Below are positions 39,196 through 64,000 of a DNA stretch of 64,000 nucleotides, in pieces (within the stretch, counting starts at the first letter, position 1; each line of letters starts with the position of its first letter). The translations under genes and the position numbers were made by a program. The notes beneath the pieces are model-generated. The model was not told the DNA's origin. It was given only the letters and a program-made list of their open reading frames with translations, and ran no database searches. Source of the stretch: an uncultured Actinomycetes bacterium (GTDB taxonomy: Bacteria > Actinomycetota > Thermoleophilia > Solirubrobacterales > 70-9); NCBI GenBank assembly GCA_963744725.1, contig CAVUUQ010000002.1, positions 760,541 to 824,540 of the forward strand, written 5' to 3'.

Positions 39196-39798
39196 TCAGC
39201 TCGCCTTGGGCGAGACCTGGGAACCGCCGCTGCCGTCCTGACGGCGCTGACGGTAGATCACGGCGCCGATCGAGATCGCCGCCAGGACGACCACGATGAT
39301 GATGATCAGGAGCAGCGCGGAGGAACCGCCGCCGCCGCTGGTCTTGTGGCTCGCCTGTTCTCCGCTGGAGTTGGAGGAGGAGGCGACCGCATGCCCCTGG
39401 CCGACCGAGCCGGCTGCGGGACTCTTCGAGCCGCCAGCTTCATTACCCTGGCCGGAGTTGCCGCCGGTACCGCCGTTGCCGCCGGTATTCCCTCCAGCCG
39501 CGGCGCCCTGTTCATGCTTTTCGCTTTCGGAAGATTCATCTTCAGTCGGTTCGCCGTTGGTGCCGGTCGTTCCGGAACTTTCCGCCTGGGCTTCGTTTCC
39601 ACCTTCGCGATGCTGCTTCTTGTGCTTCTTCGCGGTGGTTTCGTTACCGACGGTGGGGACTTCGGTTTCGTAGATGGCTCCGGCCGATTCCGCCTGGGCG
39701 GCGATCGGGAAGACCACTGATGCCAGAGCAAGCAGCGCTAGCAGAGGCAAGAAGGCGACTCGGGCCGAGCTACGGCGCGGGTGGCGGGGGCGACGCAT
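39196..39798 (-). CDS. Secreted low-complexity (Gly/Ser/Asn/Glu-rich) protein with C-terminal transmembrane anchor
   Basis: 200 aa from the internal ATG at 39798 (MRRPRHPRRSSARVAFLPLLALLALASVVFPIAAQA). C-terminal segment ALLLIIIIVVVLAAISIGAVIY, followed by a basic tail. Confidence 0.55.
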   Translation of the reverse strand: MRRPRHPRRSSARVAFLPLLALLALASVVFPIAAQAESAGAIYETEVPTVGNETTAKKHKKQHREGGNEAQAESSGTTGTNGEPTEDESSESEKHEQGAAAGGNTGGNGGTGGNSGQGNEAGGSKSPAAGSVGQGHAVASSSNSSGEQASHKTSGGGGSSALLLIIIIVVVLAAISIGAVIYRQRRQDGSGGSQVSPKAS

Positions 39799-41732
39799 TC
39801 CGCGAGAGATTAGAGGAATGGTCGGCGTTTGCGGCGCCCGCCGTCCTGGTGATCGCCCTATCCCTGGCCGAAGGCGGATTTGGGGTGACCGCTCGGCACA
39901 TCGCCGGGCTGGCGATCTGGTTGGTGATCGTTGGCCTCCTGGCGATGGGCGCTGCGTCGCGCTCCGCGATCGCGAAGCCCTTCTATTGGGCAGGGGGATT
40001 ACTTCTTGCATTCGCGCTCTTCTCCGCTCTGTCGTCGCTTTGGTCCGGCTCGGCTGAGCTCAGCGTGGTGGAGGCAGACCGGGTTCTCGTCTACCTCGGG
40101 GTCTTCGTTGCCGCATTCCTAATCGCGCAAACCGACCAGAGGCGGCAACGTTTCGGTGAAGGCATCGCGGTCGCGATCGCGGTGATCGCGGTAATTGCGC
40201 TCGCCAGCCGCCTCCTCCCTCATGCGATCAGCGTCGGACCGCCGCTCGGGAGCGGCCCGAGGCTGCGCTATCCGCTCGGTTACTGGAATGCCGACGGCTC
40301 GCTGTTCGCGCTCGGCTCGATCCTGCTCGTCTGGGTCAGCCGCTACTCGCTGAACGCGATCTTGCGCTGGCTGGCGGTGGCGCTGCTGCCGATCGTCCTC
40401 GTCGCCCTCTACTTCACCTACTCGCGCGGCGGCTTGCTGGCGCTCGCCGTCGGCTTGCTGGCGATGCTGGTGCTCTCCCATGACCGCCTCTGGCTGCTGG
40501 CGACGGTCGCGGTCGGCGGCCTGGCGGCGCTGCCGGCGCTGCTCGCGGTGCAGGCCCGGTCCGGGATCGCCAACAACGTCGTCGAACCGGGGGCGATCGA
40601 CCAGGGGGTGACGGTCGCGCTGTTCGTCGTGCTCGGGGTCGCGATCGCGCTGGCCCTGTTCGCCGGCCTGCGCCAGCTGGAGCAGCGCGGCGGCGTCTTC
40701 ACCGGCCGGGCGGTGGCGATCTCCCGCGATCGCCGGGTGCTGCGCGGAATCGCCCTGGTCGCGGCGCTGATCGGGATCGGCGCCGCGATCGCCGTCGGCG
40801 GCCGCGCCTGGGACCAGTTCTCGAGCAATGACCTGCAGCTGGCCCAGCCGCAGCAGCGGTTCGAAACGCTCTCGGGTGCCGGCCGCCACGATTTCTATCG
40901 GGTCGCGATCGATGCCTTCGAAGAAGAGCCGATCATCGGCCACGGCGCCGGCACCTACCAGTTCTCCTGGAACCAGCTGCGCCACCAACCGATCACCAAC
41001 AAACTCGCCCACTCGCTCTACCTGCAGGCCTTCGCCGAGCTCGGCCTGATCGGCGGGCTGATCATCCTGGCGCTGGTCCTGCTCCTGCTCTGGACCGCCT
41101 TCGCCGCCTGGCGCGCTGCCAGCGGCCGCCAGCGCGAAGCGCTCGGGGCGCTGTTCGCCGTCGCCCTCGCCTTCGCGGTCGGGGCGGCGATCGACTGGCT
41201 CTGGGAGGTGGCGGTGGTCGGCGCCATCTTCTTCCTCGCGACCGGTGCGGCGGTCGCGGCTCGCTGCCGCCAGCTCGTCGATGCCCGCACGGCCGCCAAC
41301 GGCAGCGGCCGGCAGCAGCGCCGCTACGGCCTGGCGATCGCGGGCCTGGCGATCGCCTGGCTGACCGCGCTGGCGCTGATCGGCCCGCTGCTCGTCGACC
41401 GCGAGATCGACGCCAGCAAAGCGGCAGCGACGAACGGCGACCTCGTGGGCGCCGAAAACCACGCGAAGACCGCGCGGACGATCGAGCCCTGGGCGGCGAG
41501 CCCCTACGTGCAGCTGGGGCTGGTGGCGCAGGCGCAGGAAAACCTGCCATTGGCGGCCGAACGCCTGCAGGACGCGATCGACCGCGAGGATCACAACTGG
41601 GTCCTCTACTACCTGCTGGCCAGGGTCCAGCACGAAGCCGGCGAAGAAAGCGCCGCCCAGGCCAGTTTGGCGAAGGCGAAGGAGCTAAACCCGCTTGAAG
41701 CGTGTTTGAGTGAAGGATGGGAAGGCTGCTGA
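39720..41732 (+). CDS. O-antigen ligase / Wzy_C-family polytopic membrane protein with C-terminal TPR-like domain (start uncertain, probably 39800-39850)
   Basis: Contains YFTYSRGGLLALAVGLL and IGHGAGTYQF...KLAHSLYLQAFAELGLIGGL, hallmarks of the WaaL/O-antigen-polymerase family. About 12 TM segments. The soluble tail has TPR-like helices. The only ATG (39720) would overlap the divergent gene 39196-39798. Confidence 0.75.
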   Translation: MPEQAALAEARRRLGPSYGAGGGGDAFRERLEEWSAFAAPAVLVIALSLAEGGFGVTARHIAGLAIWLVIVGLLAMGAASRSAIAKPFYWAGGLLLAFALFSALSSLWSGSAELSVVEADRVLVYLGVFVAAFLIAQTDQRRQRFGEGIAVAIAVIAVIALASRLLPHAISVGPPLGSGPRLRYPLGYWNADGSLFALGSILLVWVSRYSLNAILRWLAVALLPIVLVALYFTYSRGGLLALAVGLLAMLVLSHDRLWLLATVAVGGLAALPALLAVQARSGIANNVVEPGAIDQGVTVALFVVLGVAIALALFAGLRQLEQRGGVFTGRAVAISRDRRVLRGIALVAALIGIGAAIAVGGRAWDQFSSNDLQLAQPQQRFETLSGAGRHDFYRVAIDAFEEEPIIGHGAGTYQFSWNQLRHQPITNKLAHSLYLQAFAELGLIGGLIILALVLLLLWTAFAAWRAASGRQREALGALFAVALAFAVGAAIDWLWEVAVVGAIFFLATGAAVAARCRQLVDARTAANGSGRQQRRYGLAIAGLAIAWLTALALIGPLLVDREIDASKAAATNGDLVGAENHAKTARTIEPWAASPYVQLGLVAQAQENLPLAAERLQDAIDREDHNWVLYYLLARVQHEAGEESAAQASLAKAKELNPLEACLSEGWEGC

Positions 41733-43222
41733 TGAGCACCCCCGACGTCGAGCGCAAGCGGTCGATCCGCATCCGTCGCGGCGCCAACGCCGAGCCGCCG
41801 GCGGAGCCGGGCTCGATCGAGCACCTGGTCGGCGCCGGCGCCGAGGCCCTGCGGCGGCGCGGGGCGCTGCTGCGACGGCTGCTCGCCTGCGGCGACTGGA
41901 TCGCGCTGGCGACCACGCTCGTCGTCGTCACCGCGGTCAGCAGCGGGACCGACGTCGGCACCCTGTTCTGGGCGATCCTCTTCAGCCCGGCCTGGATCGT
42001 CGTCGTCAAGCTGCAGGGCCTCTACGACAACGACCACCGCCGGATCCGACACAGCACCTTCGACGAGGTGCCCTCGCTGGTCTCGGCGACGGTGCTGGGG
42101 GCTCTGGTCCTCGACGGGTTGCTGGCGCTGAGCCCGGTCGGCCCGCTCAGCTCGACCAGCGCGATCGCGGTCGGGGTCGGCACCCTGGTCGGCTCATTCT
42201 GTTTGCGGGCGACGATCCGCTTCTTCTGGCACCACCTGACGGGGCTCGCTCCGGGGCTGGCGATCGGCCCGGGCGCCGCGGTCGACACCGTCGCCCGCCG
42301 CGTCTCCACCCATCCCGAGACGCGGCTGGTGCTGGTCGGCTACCTCTCCGAGGAGGGCTCCTCGAAATCGGCCGAGCTGCCGCGCCTGGGGACGATCGCC
42401 GACATCGCCCAGGTCGCCGCCGAGCTGGCGGTCGAGCGCGTCGTCGTCACCGAACAGGAGATGAGCGAGCCGGCCGCCGAGCACCTGATCGAGCAGTGCA
42501 AGGCGGCCGGCCTGGCGCTCACCTTCCTGCCCCAGCACTACGGCCTGCTAGGCCCGGGAATCGAGCTCAACCGCCTCGCCGAGCTGCCGGTCCTCGACTT
42601 CCGCTTCAGCGACCCGCCGCGCTCGACCCAGGCGATGAAGCGGGCGATGGACATCGGCGTCTCCGCCGTCGCCCTGCTGCTGCTCTCGCCGCTGCTGCTG
42701 GTGATCGCGCTCTGGATCCTGCTCGACACCGGCCGCCCGATCCTCTTCCGCCAGCGCCGCGCCGGCAAGGACGGGGTGCCGTTCACGATGGTCAAGTTCC
42801 GGACGATGGTCGCCGACGCGGAAGCGCGGTTGCCGGAGCTGATCGACCTGGAGACGCTCGAGGAGCCGGCCTTCAAGATCCGCAACGACCCGCGGGTGAC
42901 GCGCTCCGGCCGCTTCCTGCGCCGCACCAGCCTCGACGAGCTGCCGCAGCTCTTCAACGTGCTGTTCGGCAGGATGTCGCTGGTCGGGCCGCGGCCGGAG
43001 GAGGAGAGCGTCGTCGCCCTCTACGACGAGCGGCAGCGGCGGCGGCTGGCGATCAAGCCGGGGATGACCGGGCCGATGCAGGTCTACGGCCGCAGCGACC
43101 TGACCTTCGAGGAGCGGCTGGCGATGGAGCGCGACTACCTCGACAACCTCTCGATCTTCACCGACCTGGCGATCCTGATGCGGACGCCGCGGGCGATGGT
43201 CCACGGCGAAGGCGCCTACTAG
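41717..43222 (+). CDS. Polyprenyl-phosphate hexose-1-phosphate transferase (WbaP/WcaJ-type initiating sugar transferase)
   Basis: 501 aa (alternative ATG at 41732 overlaps the upstream stop as TGATG). The C-terminal catalytic domain reads KRAMDIGVSAVALLLLSPLLLVIALWILLDTGRPILFRQRRAGKDGVPFTMVKFRTM...DPRVTRSGRFLRRTSLDELPQLFNVLFGRMSLVGPRP. Confidence 0.92.
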   Translation: MGRLLMSTPDVERKRSIRIRRGANAEPPAEPGSIEHLVGAGAEALRRRGALLRRLLACGDWIALATTLVVVTAVSSGTDVGTLFWAILFSPAWIVVVKLQGLYDNDHRRIRHSTFDEVPSLVSATVLGALVLDGLLALSPVGPLSSTSAIAVGVGTLVGSFCLRATIRFFWHHLTGLAPGLAIGPGAAVDTVARRVSTHPETRLVLVGYLSEEGSSKSAELPRLGTIADIAQVAAELAVERVVVTEQEMSEPAAEHLIEQCKAAGLALTFLPQHYGLLGPGIELNRLAELPVLDFRFSDPPRSTQAMKRAMDIGVSAVALLLLSPLLLVIALWILLDTGRPILFRQRRAGKDGVPFTMVKFRTMVADAEARLPELIDLETLEEPAFKIRNDPRVTRSGRFLRRTSLDELPQLFNVLFGRMSLVGPRPEEESVVALYDERQRRRLAIKPGMTGPMQVYGRSDLTFEERLAMERDYLDNLSIFTDLAILMRTPRAMVHGEGAY

Positions 43223-43238: not shown

Positions 43239-43746
43239 TCACTGCTCAGCGAAGAGCTCCTCCACGAAGAACCGCGCGGCCGGGTCGAGGCGATCGCCGA
43301 AGGTCCGCTCCGCCACCGCCAGCACCTCTGCCGCACTCCGCAGCCCCAGCTCGCCGGCCAGTAAGCGCACGTCCTCCTCGTCCTCACCGACCCGGTGCGC
43401 CAGCACCTTGAGGGCGAGGAGAATCTCGGGCGAGGCGGCAAGACAGCGCAGTCCCGGCAGGTCCAATACCGGTGCGGCGGCCGGGTCATCACCGGCGAGG
43501 AACCCCTTGACCGCGTCGTTGAGCCAGCCCGGCGGCAGATCCATCTCGCGAGCGACGGAGGCAGCGCACTCGTAGACGACCGCCTTCGGCTCGAAGACGG
43601 CGTCGATGTCGCGGGTCGCGCGCCGCTCGTCGAAGGCGAGGGCGATCGCGGCGCCGCCGACCACGTACATCTCGCCGCTGACGCCGCGCCGGTCGAGCTC
43701 CGCGGCAAGCGCCGTGAACGCGCGCGATGATCTCGACCCGATCCAT
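43239..43746 (-). pseudogene. Minimal nucleotidyltransferase-fold protein (Pol-beta superfamily), probably frameshifted near its 5' end
   Basis: The ORF from M at 43670 reads MYVVGGAAIALAFDERRATRDIDAVF (NTase motif GG...DID). An ATG at 43746 sits 1 nt after the upstream gene's stop and reads MDRVEIIAR. In-frame sequence upstream of 43670 reads RAFTALAAELDRRGVSGE. The two are joined only by a 1-nt shift in the GCGCGCG run near 43725-43731. Confidence 0.5.
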
Positions 43747-43747
43747 C

Positions 43748-44182
43748 TCAGACCCGGTGCAGGGAGCGCTCGGGAAGGAAGACGCCGCGCCGGCGAAAGG
43801 CGGCCGGGGCCTGGGCGATCGCGATGGCTCGGAAGCCTCGGGTCTCGCTGACGAACCAGAAGTGATCGAGGAAGCGGTCCGACTCGACGGACCAGGCCGG
43901 TCGGATCAGTCCGTGGACGGTTGCGAGGTGCTCCGCGAGTGCACCGAGGTAGGCGTCCTGCCGAGGGTCGCCGGTCGACTCGGGGCGCTCAGCGATGGCG
44001 CTCGTACGCCATCGCTCGTCCCCCGCAAGCGCGAACTCGTCGAGGAACTCGCGCACCGCGTGGTGAAAGTCCTCGCCGTCGATGGCGCGCCTCGCCACTC
44101 CGACCAAGGTCTGGGTCAGTCGCTCCAGCGGGACAGGATGGGTGGAAAGCCACTCAGATCGGGTGTCGAGCCGGGTCGCCAT
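43748..44182 (-). CDS. Hypothetical protein, partner of the downstream nucleotidyltransferase (possible antitoxin-like remnant)
   Basis: 144 aa with no recognisable HTH. The gene ends 1 nt before the ATG of the NTase gene, which indicates operon coupling. Confidence 0.45.
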   Translation of the reverse strand: MATRLDTRSEWLSTHPVPLERLTQTLVGVARRAIDGEDFHHAVREFLDEFALAGDERWRTSAIAERPESTGDPRQDAYLGALAEHLATVHGLIRPAWSVESDRFLDHFWFVSETRGFRAIAIAQAPAAFRRRGVFLPERSLHRV

Positions 44183-44238: not shown

Positions 44239-45108
44239 ATGAACCTCGAGGTCGTGATCGTCAGCCACGGCGCCGAAGCGCTGCTGCGGCGCTGCTTGCA
44301 GTCGCTGCGCGAGCACCCGCCGGGCGGGGCGGCGATGAGCGTCACCGTCGTCGACAGCGGCAGCCCCGACCGGACGCCGGAGATGGTCGCCGGCGAGTTC
44401 CCGGAGGTGAAGCTGGAGCGGCGCGGCAACGTCGGCTTCTCGGCGGCCAACAACGTGGCGCTGCGCGAGAGCACGGCCGACGCCGTCCTCCTGCTCAACC
44501 CCGACACCGAGGTCTACGCCGGCACCCTCGACGCCGGCCTCGCCCGCCTCGACGCCGACCCGGAGGTGGGAATGGTCGGGGTGAAGCTGGTGCTCGAGTC
44601 GGGCCAGCTCGACCACGCCTGCAAGCGCTCCTTCCCGACCCCGCTGGCGGCGCTCGCCCACTTCACCGGGATCGGCCGCGGCGCGGGCGCCGGCGAGCGG
44701 CTCGGCCAGTACCGGGCCACCCACCTCGGCGACGAGGAGCCGGGCGAGGTCGACGCGGTGAACGGCGCCTTCATGCTCTGCCGGGCCGCGGCGATCGCCG
44801 AGGTCGGCCTGCTCGACGAGGGCTACTGGCTCTACATGGAGGACCTCGACTGGTGCCACCGCTTCTGGGACGCCGGCTGGAAGGTCTTCTACGAGCCGGC
44901 GGGGACCGCGCTGCACGTCAAGGGCGCCTCCAGCGGCGGCCGGCGGCGGCCGAAGCAGGAGATCGCCTTCCACCGCGGCATGGGCCGCTTCTATCGGCGC
45001 TTCGACGCGCCCGTCGAGAGCCCGCTGCTGAACCTCGCCGTCTACCTCGGGATCGGCGCCAAACTGGCGCTGGCGCTGGTGATCGGCGCCTACCGGCGGG
45101 CGACGTAG
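44239..45108 (+). CDS. Family 2 glycosyltransferase
   Basis: 289 aa. Contains VVIVSHGAEALLRRCLQSL...VVDSGSPDRT...NVGFSAANNVA...LLNPDTEV...EDLDWCHR, the typical GT2 (rhamnosyltransferase-like) layout. Confidence 0.88.
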   Translation: MNLEVVIVSHGAEALLRRCLQSLREHPPGGAAMSVTVVDSGSPDRTPEMVAGEFPEVKLERRGNVGFSAANNVALRESTADAVLLLNPDTEVYAGTLDAGLARLDADPEVGMVGVKLVLESGQLDHACKRSFPTPLAALAHFTGIGRGAGAGERLGQYRATHLGDEEPGEVDAVNGAFMLCRAAAIAEVGLLDEGYWLYMEDLDWCHRFWDAGWKVFYEPAGTALHVKGASSGGRRRPKQEIAFHRGMGRFYRRFDAPVESPLLNLAVYLGIGAKLALALVIGAYRRAT

Positions 45109-45902
45109 CCGCTCTGCAGGATCGCCATCTCCGGCGTGCCGAGGTCGAACGGCCGCACGTCCTCGAACTCGGCCAGCAGGGTGCCGGTCACGTAGGAGCG
45201 CGGGTGGTAGGCGCTGCAGAGGTTGCGTCCCGACATCCGCGGCCGTTCGACGACCAGCTCGCCGCGCTCGAAGCGGGTCCGCTCCTCGTCGGTCAGGCGG
45301 GTCACCATCGACTCGCCGAGGACGCTGACCACGAGCAGGCCGCCGGGGCGGAGGATGCGGCGGAACTCGGCGATCCAGGCGTCCTGCAGCTCGCGGTCGA
45401 GGTGGGAGAAGACCGAGAGCGCGTAGACGAGGTCGAACTGGCCGTCGGCGTATCCGGTCGGCGGCGCCAGCCCGTTGACGTTGGGGTGGACGAAGGGCAG
45501 CCCCTCGCGGAGCCAGGCGACCAGGTCGGGGTTGTAGTCGGAGCCGTGCAGCTCGGGCCCCTCGACCTTGCCCCAGTGGCGCAGCACGCGGCCGCAGCCG
45601 CAGCCGAAGTCGAGCACCGCGGCGAGCTCGGCCGGCTCGCGCCCGGCCTCGCGGACGGCGTCGGCGATCGAGTCGAACATCGCCTCGCCGAGGACGAGGA
45701 AGCGCGGCCCGTCGCCGCTGCGTCCGTCGACCAGCAGCCGCAGCCGCGCCGGCGGCAGCGGCAGCCCGTCGGGGCGCGGGTCGGGCCCGTCGTCGGCCTG
45801 CCGCACCAGCCACTCTTCGCGCAGCTTCTCGACCGGCCCCAGCAGCCGGGTCCGCTCGAGCGCGTTGGCGACGCGGCTCCGAGTCTGCTGCTTCAGGGTC
45901 AT
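45090..45902 (-). CDS. Class I SAM-dependent methyltransferase
   Basis: 270 aa. Motif I VLDFGCGCGRVLRHW and post-I/II blocks (FDLVYALSVFSHL, LRPGGLLVVS) are present. Confidence 0.85.
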   Translation of the reverse strand: MTLKQQTRSRVANALERTRLLGPVEKLREEWLVRQADDGPDPRPDGLPLPPARLRLLVDGRSGDGPRFLVLGEAMFDSIADAVREAGREPAELAAVLDFGCGCGRVLRHWGKVEGPELHGSDYNPDLVAWLREGLPFVHPNVNGLAPPTGYADGQFDLVYALSVFSHLDRELQDAWIAEFRRILRPGGLLVVSVLGESMVTRLTDEERTRFERGELVVERPRMSGRNLCSAYHPRSYVTGTLLAEFEDVRPFDLGTPEMAILQSGYVARR

Positions 45903-48177: not shown

Positions 48178-48336
48178 CGGCGCGCGAGTCTATCCCGGGC
48201 GAACCGCCGCACGTGGCGTGGTCGAGACCGGGTCCTGTGAAAGCCTTGCGACGATGCCCAAGGGAGGGTCCGAAAGCTGACCGAGCTGCGCCTGGCGGGA
48301 CTCCTCGCCTTCCACCTGCTGCTGATCGGCCTGCCG

Positions 48337-55883: not shown

Positions 55884-55903
55884 CGTGGGTAGCCTTGCAC
55901 GCC

Positions 55904-56791
55904 ATGAGCACTCTCGGCGAAACCGACCGCCCGACCAAGACCGAGTCCGAGCAGCGCCCGCAGTCGCCCGACTACCTGGCGGCGCGCGCAGTCTTCGCCG
56001 AGAGCTTCCTCTTCGGCGAGGGCCTCGAGATCGGGCCCCTGCACCAGCCGCTGGCGACGCCGCGGGACGCGCGTGCCCGCTACGTCGACCGAATGCCGGT
56101 CGAGGAGCTGCGCCGCGAGTACCCCGAGTTGGCGACCTGGGACCTGACCGAGCCCGACATCGTCGACGACGGCGAGACGCTGGCGACGGTCGCGCCGGAG
56201 AGCCAGGACTTCATCGTCGCCAATCACTTCCTCGAGCACACCGAGGACCCGATCGGGACGATCCTCACCCACCTCTCGAAATTGAGGCCGGGCGGGATCC
56301 TCTTCTACGCGGTGCCGGACAAGCGCTACACCTTCGACTTCCGACGCCCCGCCACCCCGCTCGACCATATGGTCGCCGACCACGAGCAGGGCGCCGAGCG
56401 GTCGCGGCGCGAGCACTACGAGGAGTGGTCACGGCTGGTGATCGATCCGGACGCCGAGGACGGCAAGGATTGGCAGGAGCGGGCTGAGGAGCTGCGAGAC
56501 GTCGGCTACTCGATCCACATGCACACCTGGGGCGAAGCCGAGTTCCTGCGGCTGGTGCTCGAGTGCCGCGAGCGCTCCGACGGAGACTTCGACCTCGTCG
56601 CCGCCGCCCACCAGGGCCTCGAGTTCATCGTCGTCCTCCGCAAACGGGGCGCTCTCCCGGCGCCGGGACCGGACTCCCAGTGGGTGGTCCGCAACCCGCC
56701 CCCGGCGCCGTCCCAGCCCGACCCCGGCATGCGCCGCCGCATCCGGCGGGCGCTGCAGTCGGCCAAACGCGAGATCGTCCGCGAGTACTAG
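55904..56791 (+). CDS. SAM-dependent methyltransferase-like protein
   Basis: 295 aa from the ATG at 55904 (the track start at 55895 is TTG). Contains GLEIGPLHQPL...DFIVANHFLEHTEDPIGTILTHLSKLRPGGILFYAVPD, a Methyltransf_11/23-like core lacking a classical GxGxG. Confidence 0.6.
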   Translation: MSTLGETDRPTKTESEQRPQSPDYLAARAVFAESFLFGEGLEIGPLHQPLATPRDARARYVDRMPVEELRREYPELATWDLTEPDIVDDGETLATVAPESQDFIVANHFLEHTEDPIGTILTHLSKLRPGGILFYAVPDKRYTFDFRRPATPLDHMVADHEQGAERSRREHYEEWSRLVIDPDAEDGKDWQERAEELRDVGYSIHMHTWGEAEFLRLVLECRERSDGDFDLVAAAHQGLEFIVVLRKRGALPAPGPDSQWVVRNPPPAPSQPDPGMRRRIRRALQSAKREIVREY

Positions 56792-56803: not shown

Positions 56804-58477
56804 CTAGGCGGGGCAGACCCAGGCTTGCTGGCCGGCCTGGACGTGGACGAACCACGGGTATTCCGGCGCCTTGTCCTCGGGGACGGTCAGTTCCATCTCG
56901 GCCCCCCCTGGCAAGCTGACGAGCTGCACCGGGTATTCGCCCTGGGAGAAGCGCCGCATCGAAACCGCGGCTTCGCCGCCGGGGGCGACGAAGATGCGGG
57001 CCTTGCCGGGCCCGACGGGCGTCTCCGGCACTGCGATGCCGCCGGGCGGGATCGCGGTGCAGGCGGACCCGGTCACCTCCCCGGGTTCGTAGCCGTCGAG
57101 CACGGTGGTGGTGCTGAGCGGCAGCGCCTGCGAGAGGACGACGTCCCCCCAATGGCGCCCGACCTCCGGTGCATCGGCGAGTTCGGACGGCGAGTAGCCG
57201 GCCGAGCCGTGCTCGCGGACTGCCGGCAGGTAGTCGCCGCCGTTGACGTTGATCAGGGAGGGAGTGCCGGCGACTTCGGGAGCGAGCACGAATTCCGGCT
57301 TGACGGTGTTTTCCGCGATGTCGATCGCGCCGGTGTCGGCGCGGGTCAGCACCGTCTGTTCCTTCAACCAGTCGTAGCCGTCCTTGAGCTGGGCGAGATT
57401 CGGCATCACCGCCAGCACCGTGACCGCGGCCCCGATCCACAGCGCGCGCTTGCCGAGGCGGATGCCCTGGGCGGAGAACAGCTCGATCCCGAGCAGCAGG
57501 ACGAAGGCGACGCCGGCGTAGACGTAGCGGACCGAGGTCGCTTCGCGGCCGGGGATGAAGTTGAAGGCGGCCAGCAGCCAGAAGCTCAAGGCCGCGGCCG
57601 CGATCGGCCAGAAGGTCCGCGGGACGCCCGGCCGTCGCCACTGACCGTAGATCGCCAGCGCGATTGCCGCCACCGCCAGCGCCGGGCCCCAGGCGGAAGG
57701 TCCGGCTGCGCCGGAGAGCGGGGCGTTGGAGAGGCCGAACAGCGAGGCCAGCGCCGAGCCGATCCCTTCGAACGTGTAGACGGGCGACTCGAGCAGGTTC
57801 CGCAGCGTCAGGTGATGTTCGGCGTCGTGACCCCAGCCGCCGTACCAGACGACGTAGAGGACCGCCGGGATCGCGACGATCCAGAGCCGGGCCCAGCCGC
57901 GCTCGCGGTGGGCGAGGCCGACCGCCACCAGCGCCGCCAACCAGAAGGACAGCCCGAGGCTGCCGAACCCGATCGAGATCAGCAGCAGCACGCAAGCCCA
58001 GACGTCGCCGGCCCGATCTTCGCGTTCGAGCACCAGCAGCATCCCCAGCCCGGCGGCGAACGGGGCGGTGAACTCCATCTCGAACGGCCAAAGCAGGATC
58101 TGCCAGGCCGAGCCGAGAAAGAGCAGGACCACCGCGGCGAAGAGCGCCAGCCAGGGCCCGACCCGGCGCTTGGCGTAGACGTAGAGGAGCGCCCCCGAGG
58201 CGAGCAGCGTCACCGTCATGAACAGCATTTCCGGGCGCGCCGAGGTCATCCCGAAGACCTCGACGAGCAGCTTCTCGACCGCCACCTGGAAGACGATCAG
58301 GTGCTCGTTGTGCGGGGCGAGGAAGGAGTGGGCGTCGAACGGCTGCCGTTCGAGCAGCACCGCCCAGGCGTCCTGGAAGAAGGTCAGCTGCCAGCCGAGC
58401 GCGATCAGCAGGACCGCGGCGGCCAGCAGGGCCCCGATCAGGAGCAGATCCGGTTCTAGTCGCCGCCGCCAAGCCAT
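56804..58477 (-). CDS. Polytopic membrane protein with ~190-aa C-terminal extracytoplasmic domain, unrecognised family (paralog of 62574->64000)
   Basis: 557 aa from MAWRRRLEPDLLLIGALLAAAVLL (ATG 58477). About 10 TM segments, then the soluble tail LKEQTVLTRADTGAIDIAEN...PWFVHVQAGQQAWVCPA. Confidence 0.7.
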   Translation of the reverse strand: MAWRRRLEPDLLLIGALLAAAVLLIALGWQLTFFQDAWAVLLERQPFDAHSFLAPHNEHLIVFQVAVEKLLVEVFGMTSARPEMLFMTVTLLASGALLYVYAKRRVGPWLALFAAVVLLFLGSAWQILLWPFEMEFTAPFAAGLGMLLVLEREDRAGDVWACVLLLISIGFGSLGLSFWLAALVAVGLAHRERGWARLWIVAIPAVLYVVWYGGWGHDAEHHLTLRNLLESPVYTFEGIGSALASLFGLSNAPLSGAAGPSAWGPALAVAAIALAIYGQWRRPGVPRTFWPIAAAALSFWLLAAFNFIPGREATSVRYVYAGVAFVLLLGIELFSAQGIRLGKRALWIGAAVTVLAVMPNLAQLKDGYDWLKEQTVLTRADTGAIDIAENTVKPEFVLAPEVAGTPSLINVNGGDYLPAVREHGSAGYSPSELADAPEVGRHWGDVVLSQALPLSTTTVLDGYEPGEVTGSACTAIPPGGIAVPETPVGPGKARIFVAPGGEAAVSMRRFSQGEYPVQLVSLPGGAEMELTVPEDKAPEYPWFVHVQAGQQAWVCPA

Positions 58478-58525: not shown

Positions 58526-60388
58526 GTGACGCGGGTGGGCAAGCGCATCGAACTGAGCGGGGAGCGGATCGCGATCCTGGCGCTGCTGGCGCTGGCCGCG
58601 ATCGGGCTGCTGCTCGGGATCCTCGAACCGCCGCCGGAAGGCGTCCACGGCGGACGCGCCGAACAACTACTCGACCTGGTGCGGACGGTCGGCACCGCCG
58701 CCCTGGCGATCGCCGTCCTGCTCGGGCCCGGTGTGATCTGGAAGGCGACCTCACCGCCCGGCAAACCGGTCGGGCTGGCTTTCGTCGCCCTACCGGGCCT
58801 GCTGCTGCTCTTCCTGGTTGGCATCCTGGCCTGGGTGCTGGGCGGGTCTCTGGCGCCGCGCGACACCTGCCTCGCGGTGGTTGCCCCGGTGCTGGCGGCG
58901 CTGATCTTCGCCGCCCTGGCCGGCACGCAGGAGGACGTCTTCGAACCGGAGGAGCGCCGCACGCTGCTGATCGTCGGCTGCGTGCTCGGCCTGGCGATCG
59001 CCAGGGCGCTCTGGTCGCTGGGGCCGGAGGGCGAACTGTACGCCGGCACGATCTCCCGCTCGCTCGAGGTCGGCGACCGCTCCGACAGCCGCATCTCCTT
59101 CATCCTGCCGCAGCTGGTCGCAAACCACGCCGGCCCCTACAGCCCGTTCGCGACCGAAATGTTCCTGCCCTACAACTTCTCCAGCCGCGGCCCGGTGCCG
59201 GGGCTGGCGAGCACCCCGGTCGTCCTGCTGGCCGGCGGCCACCCGCCCGAGTCGTTCCCCGAACAGCCGTGGTCGCCGTTCGACTACGGCGGCTTCGCCG
59301 CGTACCGGATCGCGATGATGGTTTTCGCCTGCACCGCCTTCCTCGCCCTCTGGGATCTGACCAGGCGACTGCTGGGGACGATGGCGGCGCGGCTCGGCCT
59401 GCTGCTGGCGGCCACCACGCCGTTCCTCGTCCACGAGGTCTGGTTCACCTGGCCGAAGATGCTGGCGGCGGCGCTGGTCCTGGCGGCCGCGATCTGCGTC
59501 ATCGAGCGCCGCCCCTTCGCCGCCGGCCTGCTCGCCGGCCTCGGCTACCTGATGCACCCGGTGGCGCTGCTCTCGCTGCCGGTTCTCGGCCTGTTGGCGC
59601 TCTGGCCGCTGCGCGGGGCGCGCTGGAACCGGCCCCGGATCATGCAGGGCGTCGGCATCGTCGCGGGGCTGGCGGTCTTCCTGCTCGCCTGGCGCCTCTA
59701 CAACGGCTCCCACTACGACCAGAACCAGTTCATCGAATACTTCCGCAACGCGGGAATCGTCCTGCGGCCGACGATCCCGCACTGGATCCACTACCGGCTC
59801 GATTCGCTGGGGAACACCGTCGTGCCGCTGCTGCTCCCGCTCGGCTCGGCCGACAGCCAATCGATCAACGTCGTCGGCGGCACCTCCCCCGGCGTCGTCC
59901 ACTTCTTCTTCCAGTACTGGAACACGGTCCCGTTCGGCTTCGCGATCGTCTTCCTGCCGATGTTGCTGGTCGGCCTCTGGCGGGCGTTGCGGCGCTGGCC
60001 CTGGGCGACCACGGCGACCGTGCTGATCCCGTTCTTCCTCTTCGTCGTCTACTGGGGCTCCTCGACCGCCGGGCTGATGCGCGAGGGGCTGCAGACCTGG
60101 GCGCTGACCGTCGTCATCGTCCTCGCCTGCGAGCAGGCGGCGAGCGGCTTCGGCTGGCTGCGCTCGACCCCGGCACGGCTGGTGCTGATGCTGCGCGCGG
60201 TCGAGGTCTTCGCGGTAGCCGCGGTGCCGACGCTGGCGACCCGCCACGAAGTCGTCGCCAGCCTCTATCCGGTCACCGACACGGTCGCGTTCGTCGCGAT
60301 GACCGCTCTTTCCGCCATGCTCGGCGTGTTGGTCTGGAAGCTGAAACCGCCGTCAGACCCAATCCCCCACAACCGGGCTCCACGCTAG
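58526..60388 (+). CDS. Large (~16 TM) polytopic membrane protein, unrecognised family (candidate GT-C-like enzyme or polymerase)
   Basis: 620 aa with a GTG start. Hydrophobic throughout, with short loops such as LEVGDRSDSRISF and NGSHYDQNQFIEYFRN. It is divergent from 56804-58477 and sits directly upstream of wzt. Confidence 0.7.
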   Translation: MTRVGKRIELSGERIAILALLALAAIGLLLGILEPPPEGVHGGRAEQLLDLVRTVGTAALAIAVLLGPGVIWKATSPPGKPVGLAFVALPGLLLLFLVGILAWVLGGSLAPRDTCLAVVAPVLAALIFAALAGTQEDVFEPEERRTLLIVGCVLGLAIARALWSLGPEGELYAGTISRSLEVGDRSDSRISFILPQLVANHAGPYSPFATEMFLPYNFSSRGPVPGLASTPVVLLAGGHPPESFPEQPWSPFDYGGFAAYRIAMMVFACTAFLALWDLTRRLLGTMAARLGLLLAATTPFLVHEVWFTWPKMLAAALVLAAAICVIERRPFAAGLLAGLGYLMHPVALLSLPVLGLLALWPLRGARWNRPRIMQGVGIVAGLAVFLLAWRLYNGSHYDQNQFIEYFRNAGIVLRPTIPHWIHYRLDSLGNTVVPLLLPLGSADSQSINVVGGTSPGVVHFFFQYWNTVPFGFAIVFLPMLLVGLWRALRRWPWATTATVLIPFFLFVVYWGSSTAGLMREGLQTWALTVVIVLACEQAASGFGWLRSTPARLVLMLRAVEVFAVAAVPTLATRHEVVASLYPVTDTVAFVAMTALSAMLGVLVWKLKPPSDPIPHNRAPR

Positions 60389-60391
60389 CGT

Positions 60392-61723
60392 GTGAGAGCC
60401 CTCGCGAGAGGGCGCCCCGAAGAAATGACCTCCACGCCGCTCGAAAACGCGCTCGCGAGCTCTCGCGCCTCCCGTCGCGATTCGTTCGGGCCGACCGCAA
60501 TCCAGGTCGAAGACCTGCACAAGTACTTCCGCATCCCGATCCAGCGGGTCGATTCTCTGAAAGAGCGGGCGGTGCACCCATTTGCCTCGCGCGACTACCG
60601 TGAGCTCAGAGCGCTCAACGGGATCTCCTTCGAGATCCGCCAAGGCGAGTTCTTCGGGATCGTCGGCCGCAACGGCTCGGGCAAGAGCACGCTGCTGAAG
60701 CTCCTCGCCAGCATCTATCGCGCGGACTCGGGCACGATCCGGATCGCCGGCCGCCTGGCCCCGTTCATCGAGCTCGGCGTCGGCTTCAATCACGAGCTGA
60801 CCGCCCGCGAGAACGTCGTCCTCAACGGCGTGATGATGGGTCTGACGCCGAAGGAGATGCGATCCCGCCTCGACCAGGTGATTGACTTCGCCGAGTTGCG
60901 CGAGTTCGCCGACCTGAAGCTGAAGAACTACTCCTCGGGGATGATGGTGCGGCTGGCCTTCTCAGTGATGATGGAGGCTGATGCCGACGTGCTGCTGATC
61001 GACGAGGTGCTCGCGGTCGGCGATGCCTCGTTCCAGCAGAAATGCGCGGATGCCTTTCACCAGATGAAATCGGAAGGCAAGACGATCGTTCTCGTCACCC
61101 ACGAGATGGGAGCCGTAGAAACGTACTGCCACCGCGCGATGCTCCTCGCCGACGGCGAGATCAAGCACGTTGGAGATCCGGCGGAGACCGGGCGGGAATA
61201 TCTCAAGTTGAACTTCACCGGCGAGGCAGCGGTCGAGGAGCCGGAGCCACTCGAGGGGGATGACGACGAAGAGGACGAGCAGCGGAGCGAGAAAGGGGAG
61301 GGTGCTCGCCTCCTCAGCACGCGAATCGAGAACGCGGCGGGAGATGAGACGACGACCCTGGAGTTGGGGGAGCCGATTCGCGTCGCGCTTGAGCTGGAAC
61401 TCCTGCAGAAGGTTCCCGGCCTGCACGTGGGCCTGGTGATCGCCAACGCGGACGACATCTCGCTCTTCGAAGTGGGTATTCCGGTCCAGTCGAGGGACGG
61501 GTACGACATCAAGGGCGACAAGGTCTCGGTTACCACCACCATCCAGAACCCGCTCGGCACCGGACGCCACTTCATCCACTGTGGCGTGCAGAGCCCCTTT
61601 GGCATCTCGGTCTATAAGGAGAAAGTGGCGAGCTTCGTCATCTTCGGCTCCCAGAGCTCTCCCGGGTTGATTGCTCCCGCGAGCGAATCCGAAGCCGTGA
61701 TCGAGGGCGAGGAGACGTCGTGA
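60392..61723 (+). CDS. wzt: Polysaccharide ABC-transporter ATP-binding protein Wzt/TagH type, with C-terminal beta-sandwich (Wzt_C-like) domain
   Basis: 443 aa (GTG at 60392 or ATG at 60425). Walker A GRNGSGKSTLLK, signature YSSGMMVRLAF, Walker B LLIDEVLAVGD, an acidic linker, then a ~150-aa domain LLSTRIENAAGDETTTLELGEPIRVALELELL... Confidence 0.9.
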   Translation: MRALARGRPEEMTSTPLENALASSRASRRDSFGPTAIQVEDLHKYFRIPIQRVDSLKERAVHPFASRDYRELRALNGISFEIRQGEFFGIVGRNGSGKSTLLKLLASIYRADSGTIRIAGRLAPFIELGVGFNHELTARENVVLNGVMMGLTPKEMRSRLDQVIDFAELREFADLKLKNYSSGMMVRLAFSVMMEADADVLLIDEVLAVGDASFQQKCADAFHQMKSEGKTIVLVTHEMGAVETYCHRAMLLADGEIKHVGDPAETGREYLKLNFTGEAAVEEPEPLEGDDDEEDEQRSEKGEGARLLSTRIENAAGDETTTLELGEPIRVALELELLQKVPGLHVGLVIANADDISLFEVGIPVQSRDGYDIKGDKVSVTTTIQNPLGTGRHFIHCGVQSPFGISVYKEKVASFVIFGSQSSPGLIAPASESEAVIEGEETS

Positions 61724-62577
61724 GCGCGCCGATCGAGCCGTCTCAACTTCAAACCGTGAACGGCCCGTCGGCCCTTGGCGGCGGTTTTCGCCGATTCAGG
61801 GACCTGCTGCTGTTGATGTCCGTGACGGAGTTCAAGCGCGTCTACTTCGGCACGGTCCTCGGCTACCTCTGGTCTTTGATCCGGCCGCTGCTGCTCTTCG
61901 GGGTCCTGCTCTTCGTCTTCACCAAGGTGTTCCGCGTCGGCAGCGAACACGTCGAACACTATGCGGTGATGCTGCTGCTCGGCATCGTCCTGTTCACCTT
62001 CTTCCAGGAATCGTCCGGCGCCGCTGTCACGTCGGTCCTGGCGCAGGAGGGAGTGGTGCGCAAGACGCAGTTCCCGCGACTCGTGATTCCGCTGTCGACC
62101 GTTCTCACCAGCCTCTTCAATCTCTGTCTCAACCTGATCGTGGTGCTGGCGTTCGTGCTGGCGTTCGGCGTCTCACCCGTGTGGAGTTGGCTGCTGTTCC
62201 CGGTCGCCCTCGCGCTCCTCTTCGCCTTCACCTGCGCCGTTGGCATGGCGCTCTCGGTGCTCTACGTGAGGTTTCGCGACGTCGCGATCATCTGGGCCGT
62301 CGTCTCCCAGGTGCTTCTCTACATGACGCCGATCCTCTATCCGGTCGACGCCTTCAACAACGCCACCTACGAACACCTCCTGATGATCAACCCGTTGGCG
62401 GTGATCTTCACCGAGGTCCGTATCTGGATCCTCCACGAAGCCGGCGCGCCGACCGCACTCGAAAGCGCCGGCGGCTGGCTCGGTCTGCTGCCCGCGATCG
62501 CGATCTTCGTCGGCGTCTGCATCTACGGGGCCTGGATCTTCCAGCGCGAAGCGCCGCGAATCGCCGAGGCCCTCTAG
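61720..62577 (+). CDS. wzm: ABC-2 type polysaccharide export permease Wzm/TagG type
   Basis: 285 aa. The GTG overlaps the wzt stop (GTGA). Contains FKRVYFGTVLGYLWSLIRPLLLFGVLLFVF and six TM segments. Confidence 0.88.
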   Translation: MSAPIEPSQLQTVNGPSALGGGFRRFRDLLLLMSVTEFKRVYFGTVLGYLWSLIRPLLLFGVLLFVFTKVFRVGSEHVEHYAVMLLLGIVLFTFFQESSGAAVTSVLAQEGVVRKTQFPRLVIPLSTVLTSLFNLCLNLIVVLAFVLAFGVSPVWSWLLFPVALALLFAFTCAVGMALSVLYVRFRDVAIIWAVVSQVLLYMTPILYPVDAFNNATYEHLLMINPLAVIFTEVRIWILHEAGAPTALESAGGWLGLLPAIAIFVGVCIYGAWIFQREAPRIAEAL

Positions 62578-64000
62578 CGACAGATCCGCACCGCGGAGGT
62601 CGATTCGACCTGCAGGTGCCAGGGCTGGGAAGCTTCGTCGCGGGGGATTCCAAGCTTCGCCGTCTCGCCCGCTGGGACCGTCCCGAGATCGACTGGAAAT
62701 TCGGCGACGGAGTAACGCCGCGCATGCAGGTGCGCTTCGGCGCCGCCGGCGGCGACGGTGTAGGTACCGGGACCGAGTTCGAGTTCCGGTGGCGATTCTC
62801 CGCCCACGGAGGAGCAGCGACCGCCCGTGCCTGCACTCCCACTCGGCACGACCTTCAGCGAAAGCGGCAGTGCGCTAGCCAGCAGAACGTCCGCCCAATG
62901 CTGCGCGAGGGGAGTTGCTTTCGTCAACTCCTCAGGCGTGTAGGCCGGGGAGCCGTGTTCGTCGGTGACTTCGAGATAAGGCCCGGGGATGATCGTGACG
63001 TTCGCGAGAGTCCCGGTGATCGACGGGTCCATCACCATGTCGGGCGGAACGGTGCGGCGCGCGATCTCCAAGGCGGCGGTATCGGCCCGAGTCAGTTCGC
63101 CCTGGGTTTCGAAGACTTCGGATCCTTCCTTGAGCAGCGCGATATTCCCCGCCAGCGCACAGGCGACGACGATGGCAAGCACCGCGAGGCCACGACGCCC
63201 GACCCGCACGCCATCGAGCAGATCGGACAGCATCATCACCAGGAAGATCACGCCGGCGTAGACGTAGCGGTTCGAGGCTGCCTCGCGGCCGGGAATGTAG
63301 TTGAAGGCGGCGAGGACCCAGTACGAAGCGGCGGCGGCGGCGGCGGGCCAGAAACGCGGGGAGACGAATCTACGCCGGCGCTGCCAGGCAACGGCGGCGG
63401 CGATCAGGGCCAGCAACAGGCCCCGGCCCCAAATCGGTTCGGCCGTGCTCGCTTCGGTCTCGACGTTCAGGCCAACCAAGGAGGCCACCGATTGAGCGAG
63501 ACCATCGAGGACGAAGCGGGGCATCTCGAGGATGTTTTGGAGGGTGAGGTGATGTTCAGCCGTGTGGCCCCAGCCGAGATACCAGATGAGATAGAGCACC
63601 GCGGGTACGACGACGACGTAGCCACGGCTCCATCCGAGGCTGGAACGGCTCTGCCAGACGACGACGGCCGCGGCGACGGCGAACGACAGACCGAGGCTCC
63701 CGAATCCGATCGAGACGATCAGCAACAGGCAGGCCCAGACGTCGGCGCGCCGATCTCGGCGTTCGAGCAGAAGCATCGCCCCGAGTCCCGCCATCACGCC
63801 GCCCGAAAAGTCAATCTCGAACGGCCAGAGCAGGATCATCCAGGAGGAGCCGATGAACAGCACTGGCAGGACGGCGAGGAGGGCGAGCCAGGGGCCCAAC
63901 CTGCGGCGTACGTAGACGAACAGAACAGCGCCGGCGGCCAGCAAGGTGGCCGTCATCACGAACATTTCCGGATGGGCGCTCGACAGCCCAAAAATCTGCT
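62574..64000 (-). CDS. Polytopic membrane protein, paralog of 56804-58477 (5' end lies beyond the right edge)
   Basis: The open frame continues to the window edge (…IFGLSSAHPEMFVMTATLL aligns with VFGMTSARPEMLFMTVTLL of the paralog, about 100 aa into that protein). Its stop codon shares the CTAG tetranucleotide with the wzm stop. Confidence 0.7.
   Translation of the reverse strand, partial: QIFGLSSAHPEMFVMTATLLAAGAVLFVYVRRRLGPWLALLAVLPVLFIGSSWMILLWPFEIDFSGGVMAGLGAMLLLERRDRRADVWACLLLIVSIGFGSLGLSFAVAAAVVVWQSRSSLGWSRGYVVVVPAVLYLIWYLGWGHTAEHHLTLQNILEMPRFVLDGLAQSVASLVGLNVETEASTAEPIWGRGLLLALIAAAVAWQRRRRFVSPRFWPAAAAAASYWVLAAFNYIPGREAASNRYVYAGVIFLVMMLSDLLDGVRVGRRGLAVLAIVVACALAGNIALLKEGSEVFETQGELTRADTAALEIARRTVPPDMVMDPSITGTLANVTIIPGPYLEVTDEHGSPAYTPEELTKATPLAQHWADVLLASALPLSLKVVPSGSAGTGGRCSSVGGESPPELELGPGTYTVAAGGAEAHLHARRYSVAEFPVDLGTVPAGETAKLGIPRDEASQPWHLQVESTSAVRICR

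Follow-up and report, generated by a model that had tools for sequence, protein, structure and literature searches.

A candidate rhamnose-containing surface-glycan locus in Solirubrobacterales, with ABC-transporter genes beside membrane proteins of predicted GT-C fold

We analysed a 64,000-nucleotide stretch of DNA (the window; positions 760,541 to 824,540 of contig CAVUUQ010000002.1, forward strand, assembly GCA_963744725.1) from an uncultured member of the Solirubrobacterales, an abundant group of soil Actinomycetota. The right-hand part of the window encodes an initiating sugar transferase, the enzymes of dTDP-rhamnose synthesis, GT2 glycosyltransferases, two methyltransferases, a two-gene ATP-binding cassette (ABC) exporter (Wzm and Wzt), a Wzy_C protein and four large membrane proteins, here called A to D. 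On balance, and with modest confidence, we read the region from ~38.0 kb to beyond 64.0 kb as a single locus, conserved in Solirubrobacterales, that directs the ABC-transporter-dependent formation of a rhamnose-containing surface glycan.

The G+C content of the window is ~70%, and raw lists of open reading frames (ORFs) consequently consist mostly of spurious frames. Coding frames were chosen by third-position G+C (GC3) and then scanned with Pfam and NCBIfam, which gave the following map.

38045-39190, minus strand: secreted PslG-like glycoside hydrolase, 381 residues (phmmer against the PDB: PslG 5bx9/4zn2, E 1.2e-7)
39720-41732, plus strand: Wzy_C (WaaL/PglL-type) polytopic protein with a C-terminal TPR tail (Pfam Wzy_C 54.7 bits, cut-off 31.7)
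41717-43222, plus strand: large polyprenyl-phosphate hexose-1-phosphate transferase (PGT) of the WbaP/WcaJ type (Bac_transf 214 bits; TIGR03025 356 bits, cut-off 295)
44239-45108, plus strand: GT2 glycosyltransferase GT2_289, 289 residues (Pfam Glycos_transf_2 56.5 bits)
45090-45902, minus strand: S-adenosylmethionine-dependent methyltransferase, 270 residues (Pfam Methyltransf_23/12/11/25)
45973-47598, minus strand: major facilitator superfamily (MFS) transporter, 541 residues (Pfam MFS_1 181 bits)
47629-48177, minus strand: RmlC, dTDP-4-dehydrorhamnose 3,5-epimerase (Pfam dTDP_sugar_isom 222.6 bits)
48337-49971, plus strand: protein A, membrane protein of predicted GT-C fold, 544 residues (AlphaFold2 model and Foldseek)
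49938-50975, minus strand: RmlB, dTDP-glucose 4,6-dehydratase, assigned by domain and context (GDP_Man_Dehyd 230 bits, Epimerase 210 bits)
50918-51766, minus strand: RmlD, dTDP-4-dehydrorhamnose reductase (Pfam RmlD_sub_bind 299.5 bits)
52873-53961, minus strand: long-form sugar-1-phosphate nucleotidylyltransferase, RmlA-like (NTP_transferase 201.6 bits plus LbH matches)
53986-54918, plus strand: GT2 glycosyltransferase GT2_310, 310 residues, soluble, with an Arg-rich tail (Pfam Glycos_transf_2 73.3 bits)
54929-55880, minus strand: GT2 gene of the 319-residue type, frameshifted (tblastn with an intact orthologue from the related locus L001)
55895-56791, plus strand: methyltransferase, 298 residues (Pfam Methyltransf_23 34 bits)
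56804-58477, minus strand: protein B, membrane protein of predicted GT-C fold, 557 residues (AlphaFold2 model and Foldseek)
58526-60388, plus strand: protein C, GT-C glycosyltransferase of the PMT_2/GT87 type, 620 residues (Pfam PMT_2 29.3 bits, cut-off 26.1; GT87 26.1 bits, cut-off 25)
60392-61723, plus strand: Wzt, ABC transporter ATPase with a C-terminal glycan-binding domain (ABC_tran 76.8 bits; Wzt_C 38.4 bits, cut-off 30.4)
61720-62577, plus strand: Wzm, ABC-2 permease (Pfam ABC2_membrane 60.4 bits)
62574->64000, minus strand: protein D, paralogue of B, with ~72 N-terminal residues past the window end (BLASTP against B)

The inventory of an earlier, first-pass annotation of this DNA (a WbaP-type PGT, GT2 enzymes, rmlC-B-D-A, two methyltransferases, Wzm/Wzt and a Wzy_C protein with a TPR tail) was upheld by the GC3 frames and the family scans. 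GC3, Pfam, tblastn and phmmer together added three genes that were absent from that account: the MFS gene, the frameshifted GT2 gene and the hydrolase gene. The last of these shifts the left edge of the conserved locus, previously set at 39720, outwards to 38045-39190.

Proteins A to D are the products of real coding genes, with GC3 values of 0.80-0.93 and hundreds of homologues each. All are polytopic and fit the ~8-13 or more transmembrane helices expected of GT-C enzymes, as judged from hydropathy and, for A and B, from the helices of AlphaFold2 models. The reading frame of D is open up to the window edge, and its product is 48% identical to B over 483 aligned positions (BLASTP, E 4e-135, alignment from B residue 73); B and D are thus paralogues, and the four membrane proteins fall into three families. 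C reaches the Pfam cut-offs for PMT_2 and GT87, and its GT22 match is weak; some of its homologues are named 'glycosyltransferase family 39 protein' by NCBI. In NCBIfam, C had no match and D a chance-level match only. No meaningful match was found for A, and none at all for B, in Pfam or NCBIfam, and PDB sequences searched with A, B and C, both as single sequences and as profiles, yielded nothing useful. Both families without a curated profile are nonetheless large: that of A has at least 1261 homologues, and an exhaustive profile search for B retrieved 4949 cluster representatives (50% identity) at E <= 1e-3, 1605 of them at E <= 1e-30. Homologues of A and B are unnamed or called 'hypothetical protein', and those with organism names come from Solirubrobacterales metagenome-assembled genomes (MAGs). 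The view that all four membrane proteins defy family assignment therefore holds for A and B, whereas C can be placed through PMT_2/GT87 and D through its paralogy to B.

Comparison of family profiles with hhalign related the A family to the C family (73% probability, E 3e-5) around a common W-P-K...H segment, and found no relationship of the B family to either. B is consequently tied to GT-C enzymes by its fold and by weak matches alone. The latter are matches of a few B relatives to PMT_2, YfhO, DUF6056, DUF6057 and PTPS_related, none of which is matched by the B protein of the window itself; PMT_2, YfhO and PTPS_related are families that we take to be of GT-C type.

AlphaFold2 models of A and B were built from family alignments and compared with the PDB by Foldseek. 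The model of A has a predicted local distance difference test (pLDDT) score of 90.3 and a predicted template modelling (pTM) score of 0.93, and that of B has values of 93.1 and 0.91. The top match of A is Pmt4 (9i5k, E 2.5e-4), followed by ALG9, EmbB, PglB and ALG12 (template modelling (TM) scores of 0.43-0.48), STT3 and AftB. For B the top match is ArnT (5ezm, E 3.1e-4, TM-score 0.44), with EmbA/B/C, PglB, AglB, STT3, ALG9, AftD, AftA and Pmt4 among the further matches. Almost all matches with a probability of ~1.0 are GT-C enzymes; listed transporters and toxins have low probabilities and very low TM-scores. Assignment of all four membrane proteins to the GT-C type is thus supported by Pfam for C, by the models for A and B, and by paralogy to B for D, and A and B would represent two large GT-C-fold families beyond the curated coverage of Pfam and NCBIfam.

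The three families also conserve acidic residues in early loops. In the family alignment of A, D119, W146, D150-R-P-P-L-Q, W224-P-K and H269-G are invariant; D119, W146 and the D150-RPPLQ motif lie in a long loop after the third helix that is predicted, by the positive-inside rule, to be exofacial. C has invariant E170, R185, D187, R189 and W309-P-K, with D184 conserved in at least 90% of sequences, and E170, D184, R185, D187 and R189 all fall in a long loop that precedes the PMT_2-like core. The N-terminus of B is Arg-rich and leads into one helix, after which comes a loop containing two short helices; overall, B is modelled as a ~350-residue membrane module and a ~200-residue beta-rich C-terminal domain with a disulfide. 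Among 129 diverse relatives that are 29-50% identical to B, D36, directly after the first transmembrane helix, is 95% conserved and the neighbouring position is Asp or Glu in 90%. R317/Y318 are 98% and C473/C555 97-99% conserved, and W38, R44, H59, R152 and D158 are also kept. The near-invariant Cys pair argues that the C-terminal domain of B is exofacial. Close relatives of the B protein in the window carry Thr or Ala at position 37, and the equivalent position of D lies past the window end. The first-pass annotation had made its proposal conditional on a GT-C fold and had looked to acidic residues in the first exofacial loop; both have now been found, the positive-inside rule, joined for B by the Cys pair, being the basis for predicting that the residues lie outside. 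Confident matches placing all four proteins in families with other roles, or models lacking GT-C architecture and acidic residues, which it had named as the outcomes that would speak against it, did not arise.

Upstream of the ATG of A, in-frame sequence at 48241-48336 on the plus strand (...LRLAGLLAFHLLLIGLP) resembles an extra N-terminal helix present in homologues of A. This region contains no ATG, GTG or TTG, and the closest relatives of A start at the same Met. Either A is N-terminally shortened here or it uses an unusual start codon.

Metagenomic proteins in which a B module is fused to another domain offer some indication of function. A B module is joined to a Wzy_C domain in P0388 (1225 residues), to a GT2 domain in P0411 (930 residues) and to another polytopic protein in P0426, and P0382 consists of two B modules. 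Gene-calling artefacts are possible among these, but the fusions lend support to a functional link of B to Wzy_C and GT2 proteins. They also bear on a different role for B and D, as en-bloc transferases resembling oligosaccharyltransferases or ligases, which would move the exported undecaprenyl-diphosphate-linked glycan to protein or another acceptor instead of attaching sugars one at a time. The fusions with Wzy_C-type proteins would suit such a role, as would the presence of PglB, AglB and STT3 among the top fold matches of B, its combination of a membrane module with a predicted exofacial C-terminal domain, and the lack of a monosaccharide donor synthase in the locus. ArnT and Emb, however, score equal to or above the oligosaccharyltransferases for B, the locus already has a dedicated ligase-like Wzy_C+TPR protein, and the PDB search gave no sequence match of B to PglB, AglB or STT3, a WWDYG-type motif not having been looked for. 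We regard en-bloc transfer by B and D as quite unlikely.

Conservation of the locus was assessed in two sets of relatives. For the first, one genome per species was scanned, which yielded 181 stretches encoding relatives of B; the best 80 were analysed as B-anchored loci, in which a gene was counted when it lay within 10 kb of B. Many of these contigs are short, and the counts are lower bounds. The second set comprised 80 metagenomic loci anchored on the Wzy_C+TPR protein. All of the best 80 of the 181 B-relative stretches belong to MAGs labelled as Solirubrobacterales, as Thermoleophilia or, more broadly, as actinomycetes, and the origin of homologues and loci thus agrees with the earlier attribution, made from the letters alone, to a high-GC lineage outside the Corynebacteriales, identified here as the Solirubrobacterales. 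Wzm (71/80) and Wzt (69/80) are the most constant companions of B, followed by the 310-residue type of GT2 (60/80), A (58/80), the 319-residue type of GT2 (55/80), RmlB (50/80), RmlA (49/80) and RmlD (42/80); the Wzt-side methyltransferase was found in 21/80 and C in 18/80. The commonest order is A, B, Wzm, Wzt, an optional methyltransferase, GT2, GT2 and rmlA-D-B-C.

These counts bear on whether the GT-C proteins are merely co-located with the glycan genes and act on other substrates, in PMT-like protein O-mannosylation or in the synthesis of lipoglycans of the phosphatidylinositol mannoside (PIM) or lipomannan type. C matches PMT_2 and GT87, which are families of protein and PIM mannosyltransferases, and is found in only 18 of the 80 B-anchored loci; furthermore, a cultured Solirubrobacter contains PIMs (PMC10722151). 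Against this, A and B remain tightly syntenic with Wzm/Wzt, GT2 and rml genes across the 80 genomes despite rearrangements, and B is fused to Wzy_C and to GT2 domains. Mere co-location consequently appears very improbable.

Relatives also carry variable segments with extra GT2 or GT4 genes, including in some an extra small GT2, and other unassigned polytopic proteins. Segments of this kind are typical of surface-glycan loci. Four of the polytopic proteins, in the related loci L015 (11642-13027), L020 (11705-13474) and L017 (14769-16004 and 16203-18131), have 411-642 residues and ~8-10 hydrophobic segments. They showed no Pfam match and no hidden Markov model similarity to A, B or C, and may be further unclassified membrane glycosyltransferases.

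The left block of the locus recurs in the Wzy_C-anchored set. There, the hydrolase gene adjoins the Wzy_C+TPR gene in 65/80 loci, the PGT gene comes after the Wzy_C gene in 66/80 and GT2_289 follows the PGT gene in 56/80. The order hydrolase-Wzy_C-PGT-GT2, succeeded by rmlC-B-D-A and the core GT2 genes, was found in nearly all sufficiently long contigs, so that the whole ~26 kb can be regarded as a recurrent supercluster.

A PGT together with a Wzy_C protein is also reminiscent of Psl and other Wzy-type loci, which raises the alternative that two neighbouring pathways are present: a Psl-like or Wzy-type exopolysaccharide module made up of the hydrolase, the Wzy_C+TPR protein, the PGT and GT2_289, and an independent rml/GT2/Wzm-Wzt/GT-C pathway initiated elsewhere. 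The similarity of the hydrolase to PslG agrees with this. In the closely related loci L001 and L003, moreover, MFS and TetR genes terminate the ABC/GT-C/rml block and a PGT block is lacking, and a PGT lies within 10 kb in only 1/80 B-anchored loci. This low count is largely an effect of flank length, since at least 12 of these loci have GT2_289 at their edge. An exopolysaccharide module of its own is further opposed by the absence of a Wzx flippase or chain-length regulator from the window, by the rmlCBDA and core GT2 genes that come after the Wzy_C block in nearly all long Wzy_C-anchored contigs, and by the requirement of an ABC-dependent route for an initiating PGT plus a ligase. We therefore consider two separate pathways unlikely, and treat the two blocks below as parts of one glycan locus.

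In the left block, the hydrolase had no match in the Pfam scan; a hydrophobic segment at residues 11-35 indicates an N-terminal signal or anchor helix. The Wzy_C+TPR protein scored 22.3 bits for TPR_19, under the Pfam cut-off of 25, and gave only weak ligase and TPR matches in NCBIfam. It is a putative ligase or O-oligosaccharyltransferase of the exported glycan. WsfB and PglL have the same layout of Wzy_C plus C-terminal TPR (PMC2943079), and by analogy with them the protein points as much to protein glycosylation of the S-layer type as to a wall polymer (PMC2943079). GT2_289 has a single, C-terminal hydrophobic segment (residues 262-285) and is possibly an adaptor or first rhamnosyl transferase. 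The methyltransferase at 45090-45902 was found in 11/80 Wzy_C-anchored loci. The MFS gene is rarely kept in the locus among relatives of either set, and its product probably stands outside the glycan pathway as an efflux pump. In one relative, the homologue of this gene has as neighbours another MFS gene and a gene for a TetR regulator.

Among the rhamnose genes, that for RmlB sits inside the rml run in relatives. The RmlA-like protein combines an NTP_transferase domain with a left-handed beta-helix tail, and its gene heads the rml run in relatives; its RmlA role is inferred from this context. GT2_310 has no hydrophobic segment by hydropathy and is a probable cytoplasmic chain-building (rhamnosyl) transferase. 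The 319-residue type of GT2, which likewise has no hydrophobic segment, is intact in 55/80 B-anchored relatives. In the window, residues 5-143 of the L001 orthologue map by tblastn to 55880-55464 (frame -3) and residues 163-318 to 55405-54938 (frame -1), and Pfam matches the C-terminal half only; the break near 55405-55464 is either a real pseudogene lesion or an assembly indel error. The methyltransferase at 55895-56791 adjoins Wzt in 21/80 B-anchored loci and is a candidate chain-end capping enzyme. Two ORFs with weak matches to DUF6036 (nucleotidyltransferase-like), at 43239-43988 and 51841-52575 (both minus strand), occupy lower-GC3 stretches inside the locus. They share 32% identity over 96 residues and are almost absent from related loci (0/80 and 1/80), and so resemble small insertions.

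Taken together, the components of an ABC-dependent pathway are present: a PGT above the TIGR03025 cut-off, RmlA-D and GT2 enzymes by Pfam, a Wzy_C ligase-like protein above its cut-off, and Wzm/Wzt. A Wzx/Wzy pathway was rejected, with no flippase or chain-length regulator in the window and Wzm/Wzt present. The Wzt_C domain (38.4 versus 30.4 bits in Pfam) co-occurs with two methyltransferase genes, whose predicted role is capping, a combination that suggests chain-end capping read by the exporter. We also considered the small GT2 enzymes as polyprenyl-phosphate sugar synthases of the GtrB/ArnC/DPM1 type and set this aside: they are without membrane anchors, and in NCBIfam they fall far short of the cut-offs for ArnC, PpgS and DPM-type synthases.

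Several observations weigh against the reading of the region as one locus in which GT-C enzymes act on an exported glycan. In some close relatives the Wzy_C/PGT block is apart from the rml/Wzm/Wzt block, and joint action of the two may not be universal. For A and B, the fold matches are moderate (TM-scores of 0.35-0.48, E ~3e-4) and indicate a common fold rather than closeness to any single enzyme. The B protein of the window has Ala37 beside D36, where 90% of the family has Asp or Glu, and one of the two core GT2 genes is broken by a frameshift. Finally, neither the window nor the conserved core contains a membrane-anchored polyprenyl-phosphate sugar synthase of the GtrB/GacI/Ppm1 type (Pfam, NCBIfam, hydropathy), nor a GtrA or Wzx flippase or UbiA/DprE genes (Pfam, NCBIfam), which leaves the donors for the four GT-C enzymes unaccounted for.

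With these points in mind, the locus most likely directs the synthesis of a rhamnose-containing glycan that is exported by the ABC transporter and then acted upon by three to four membrane glycosyltransferases outside the membrane. From the gene identities, GT-C fold, conserved residues and synteny described above, we infer the following catalytic steps, donors and acceptor. The WbaP/WcaJ-type transferase would load hexose-1-phosphate onto undecaprenyl phosphate, and the soluble GT2 enzymes would carry out chain extension in the cytoplasm, with RmlABCD providing the dTDP-rhamnose. Capping or O-methylation of the chain is probably the task of a methyltransferase, and the lipid-linked polymer would be exported by Wzm-Wzt, the C-terminal domain of Wzt being expected to read the chain end. 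Outside the cytoplasm, A, B (with its paralogue D) and C would add or extend sugars from polyprenyl-phosphate donors made elsewhere in the genome, and the acceptor glycan is probably held by the C-terminal domain of B and D, which is rich in beta structure and carries a disulfide. The Wzy_C+TPR protein would then move the finished glycan to its final acceptor, a surface protein or other envelope molecule, and the PslG-like hydrolase may trim it. Whole-cell sugars of a cultured Solirubrobacter include rhamnose, galactose and xylose, and phosphatidylinositol mannosides are present (PMC10722151); polyprenyl-phosphate mannose is thus plausibly available in the order, as a donor at least for C.

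The best-documented Gram-positive precedent, by analogy, is the slg cluster of Geobacillus stearothermophilus NRS 2004/3a, which encodes the WbaP-like WsaP, RmlABCD, rhamnosyltransferases, Wzm/Wzt and a Wzy_C transferase, and whose S-layer glycan bears a 2-O-methyl cap predicted to be bound by Wzt (PMC2943079). The recognisable genes of our locus fit this ABC scheme point by point. The slg clusters of Geobacillus and Paenibacillus alvei share with it a WbaP-like start, rml genes, cytoplasmic glycosyltransferases, a methyltransferase, Wzm/Wzt and Wzy_C; they are without GT-C enzymes as described in the review, and their rhamnosyltransferases WsaC-F differ (PMC2943079). They also belong to Bacillota, whereas the present locus is from Actinomycetota (Thermoleophilia), with no S-layer protein gene identified adjoining it. 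Escherichia coli O9a/O8 provides a further parallel, in a Wzt C-terminal glycan-binding domain accompanied by methyltransferases and in a WaaL-family ligase. In contrast, the lineage studied here is of a monoderm actinobacterial type without lipid A-core, and no WbdD-like kinase or coiled-coil ruler was detected.

For the extracytoplasmic steps, the closest parallels are again in Bacillota. The first-pass annotation took polymers of Wzm/Wzt pathways to be normally finished in the cytoplasm. This is outdated, as GT-C decoration of ABC-exported rhamnan after export is established in streptococci, lactococci and enterococci (PMC9574508). The GAC, Rgp and EPA systems share with our locus rml genes, a rhamnan assembled on undecaprenyl phosphate in the cytoplasm, a two-gene ABC exporter and modification outside by polytopic GT-C enzymes that are poorly conserved and recognised structurally (PMC9574508). 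They differ in their TagO/WecA-type start, attachment to peptidoglycan by LCP proteins and use of a GtrB/GacI-like synthase and flippase with the GT-C enzyme (PMC9574508), whereas our locus has a WbaP/WcaJ start and a ligase-like Wzy_C+TPR protein and no synthase, flippase or LCP gene in the window. Three-component GT-C addition after export has been reported, in the available part of one paper, as a common pathway that includes O-antigens (PMC11127046). The GT-C families found here differ from those of the systems covered in that part, and the three-component partner genes are absent from the locus: neither an anchored GT2 synthase nor a GtrA/Wzx flippase was found in the window by Pfam, NCBIfam or hydropathy.

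The mycobacterial arabinogalactan set comprises WecA, WbbL, GlfT1/GlfT2/Glf, decaprenyl-phospho-arabinose genes (UbiA, DprE1/2), Emb/Aft and an LCP ligase. The first-pass annotation likened the layout of the locus to this pathway, in which galactan is exported by Wzm-Wzt, according to the available part of the source (PMC13649706). In outline the likeness stands, as both have a lipid-linked rhamnose-containing chain, a Wzm-Wzt exporter and several GT-C enzymes acting outside (PMC13649706, same part). In its components it does not: the start is of the WbaP/WcaJ type, a WecA/WbbL/GlfT1/GlfT2/Glf set is absent from the window, and in its place the locus has a Wzt_C domain, methyltransferases and a WaaL-like protein. 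Pfam and NCBIfam detected no Glf among the scanned ORFs of the window, the best GT2 score for GlfT1 in NCBIfam was 28.5 bits against a cut-off of 330, and there was no Pfam or NCBIfam match in the window to the Emb/Aft families, UbiA, DprE1/2 or LCP, genes for which could be located in other parts of the genome. As analogies, the S-layer rhamnan cluster of Geobacillus and the GT-C-decorated rhamnose polysaccharides of streptococci and lactococci are closer precedents than arabinogalactan. The first-pass proposal of an undescribed wall-glycopolymer system with an arabinogalactan-like layout is only partly supported.

A stronger form of the arabinogalactan comparison is that synthesis proceeds in two stages. 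The exported rhamnose-containing chain would be a primer on which A, B/D and C, as a dedicated extracytoplasmic polymerisation machine, build a large second glycan domain, and the product would be a core wall heteropolymer. The locus has three to four GT-C genes, with A and B as core members beside Wzm/Wzt, and cytoplasmic synthesis can draw on just two or three small GT2 enzymes; B, like the Emb proteins, has a C-terminal beta-rich domain, predicted to be exofacial, and Emb/Aft enzymes are among the fold matches. Set against these features are the Wzt_C domain and methyltransferases, which suggest the export of a finished, capped chain, the WaaL/PglL type of the ligase-like protein, and the absence from the window of UbiA/DprE or GtrB-type donor genes, Glf/GlfT and an LCP ligase. 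Nor was membership of the Emb/Aft families found by sequence. Such a machine seems doubtful to us, although, if it were real, it would imply an independent origin of an arabinogalactan-like strategy within Actinomycetota, in which the GT-C families are unrelated, initiation is of the WbaP type and the ligase of the WaaL type.

Under our preferred reading, in which the GT-C enzymes finish an ABC-exported glycan, the locus combines an ABC pathway of the O9a/slg type, a WaaL/PglL-type ligase and three GT-C families. The pairing of the GT-C strategy with a ligase of this type was not found in the precedents that we checked. If correct, this reading would add a third major Gram-positive lineage to Bacillota and Corynebacteriales as users of ABC export followed by GT-C finishing outside the cell. 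Our literature search returned nothing specific on wall glycans or glycosyltransferases of Solirubrobacterales and no description of their envelope glycans, and a conserved locus with a stable core and variable parts is a candidate for the main surface-glycan locus of the order. A and B would add two sizeable GT-C-fold families outside Pfam and NCBIfam; D36 and R317-Y318 in B and the DRPPLQ motif in A present targets for structural and biochemical work.

Outside the locus, 6 kb upstream, an RTX protein of 631 residues with eight calcium-binding repeat stretches is encoded at 30098-31993 (plus strand). If the glycan is attached to protein, secreted repeat proteins like this one could be candidates for the acceptor. 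Further to the left, a gene for a Mu-transposase C-terminal domain (3718-5025, plus strand) lies beside a stretch of lower G+C content (6000-18000; 0.57-0.66 versus ~0.70) that encodes a 1439-residue protein with five LamG-type domains (8994-13313, minus strand). This stretch may be an acquired island.

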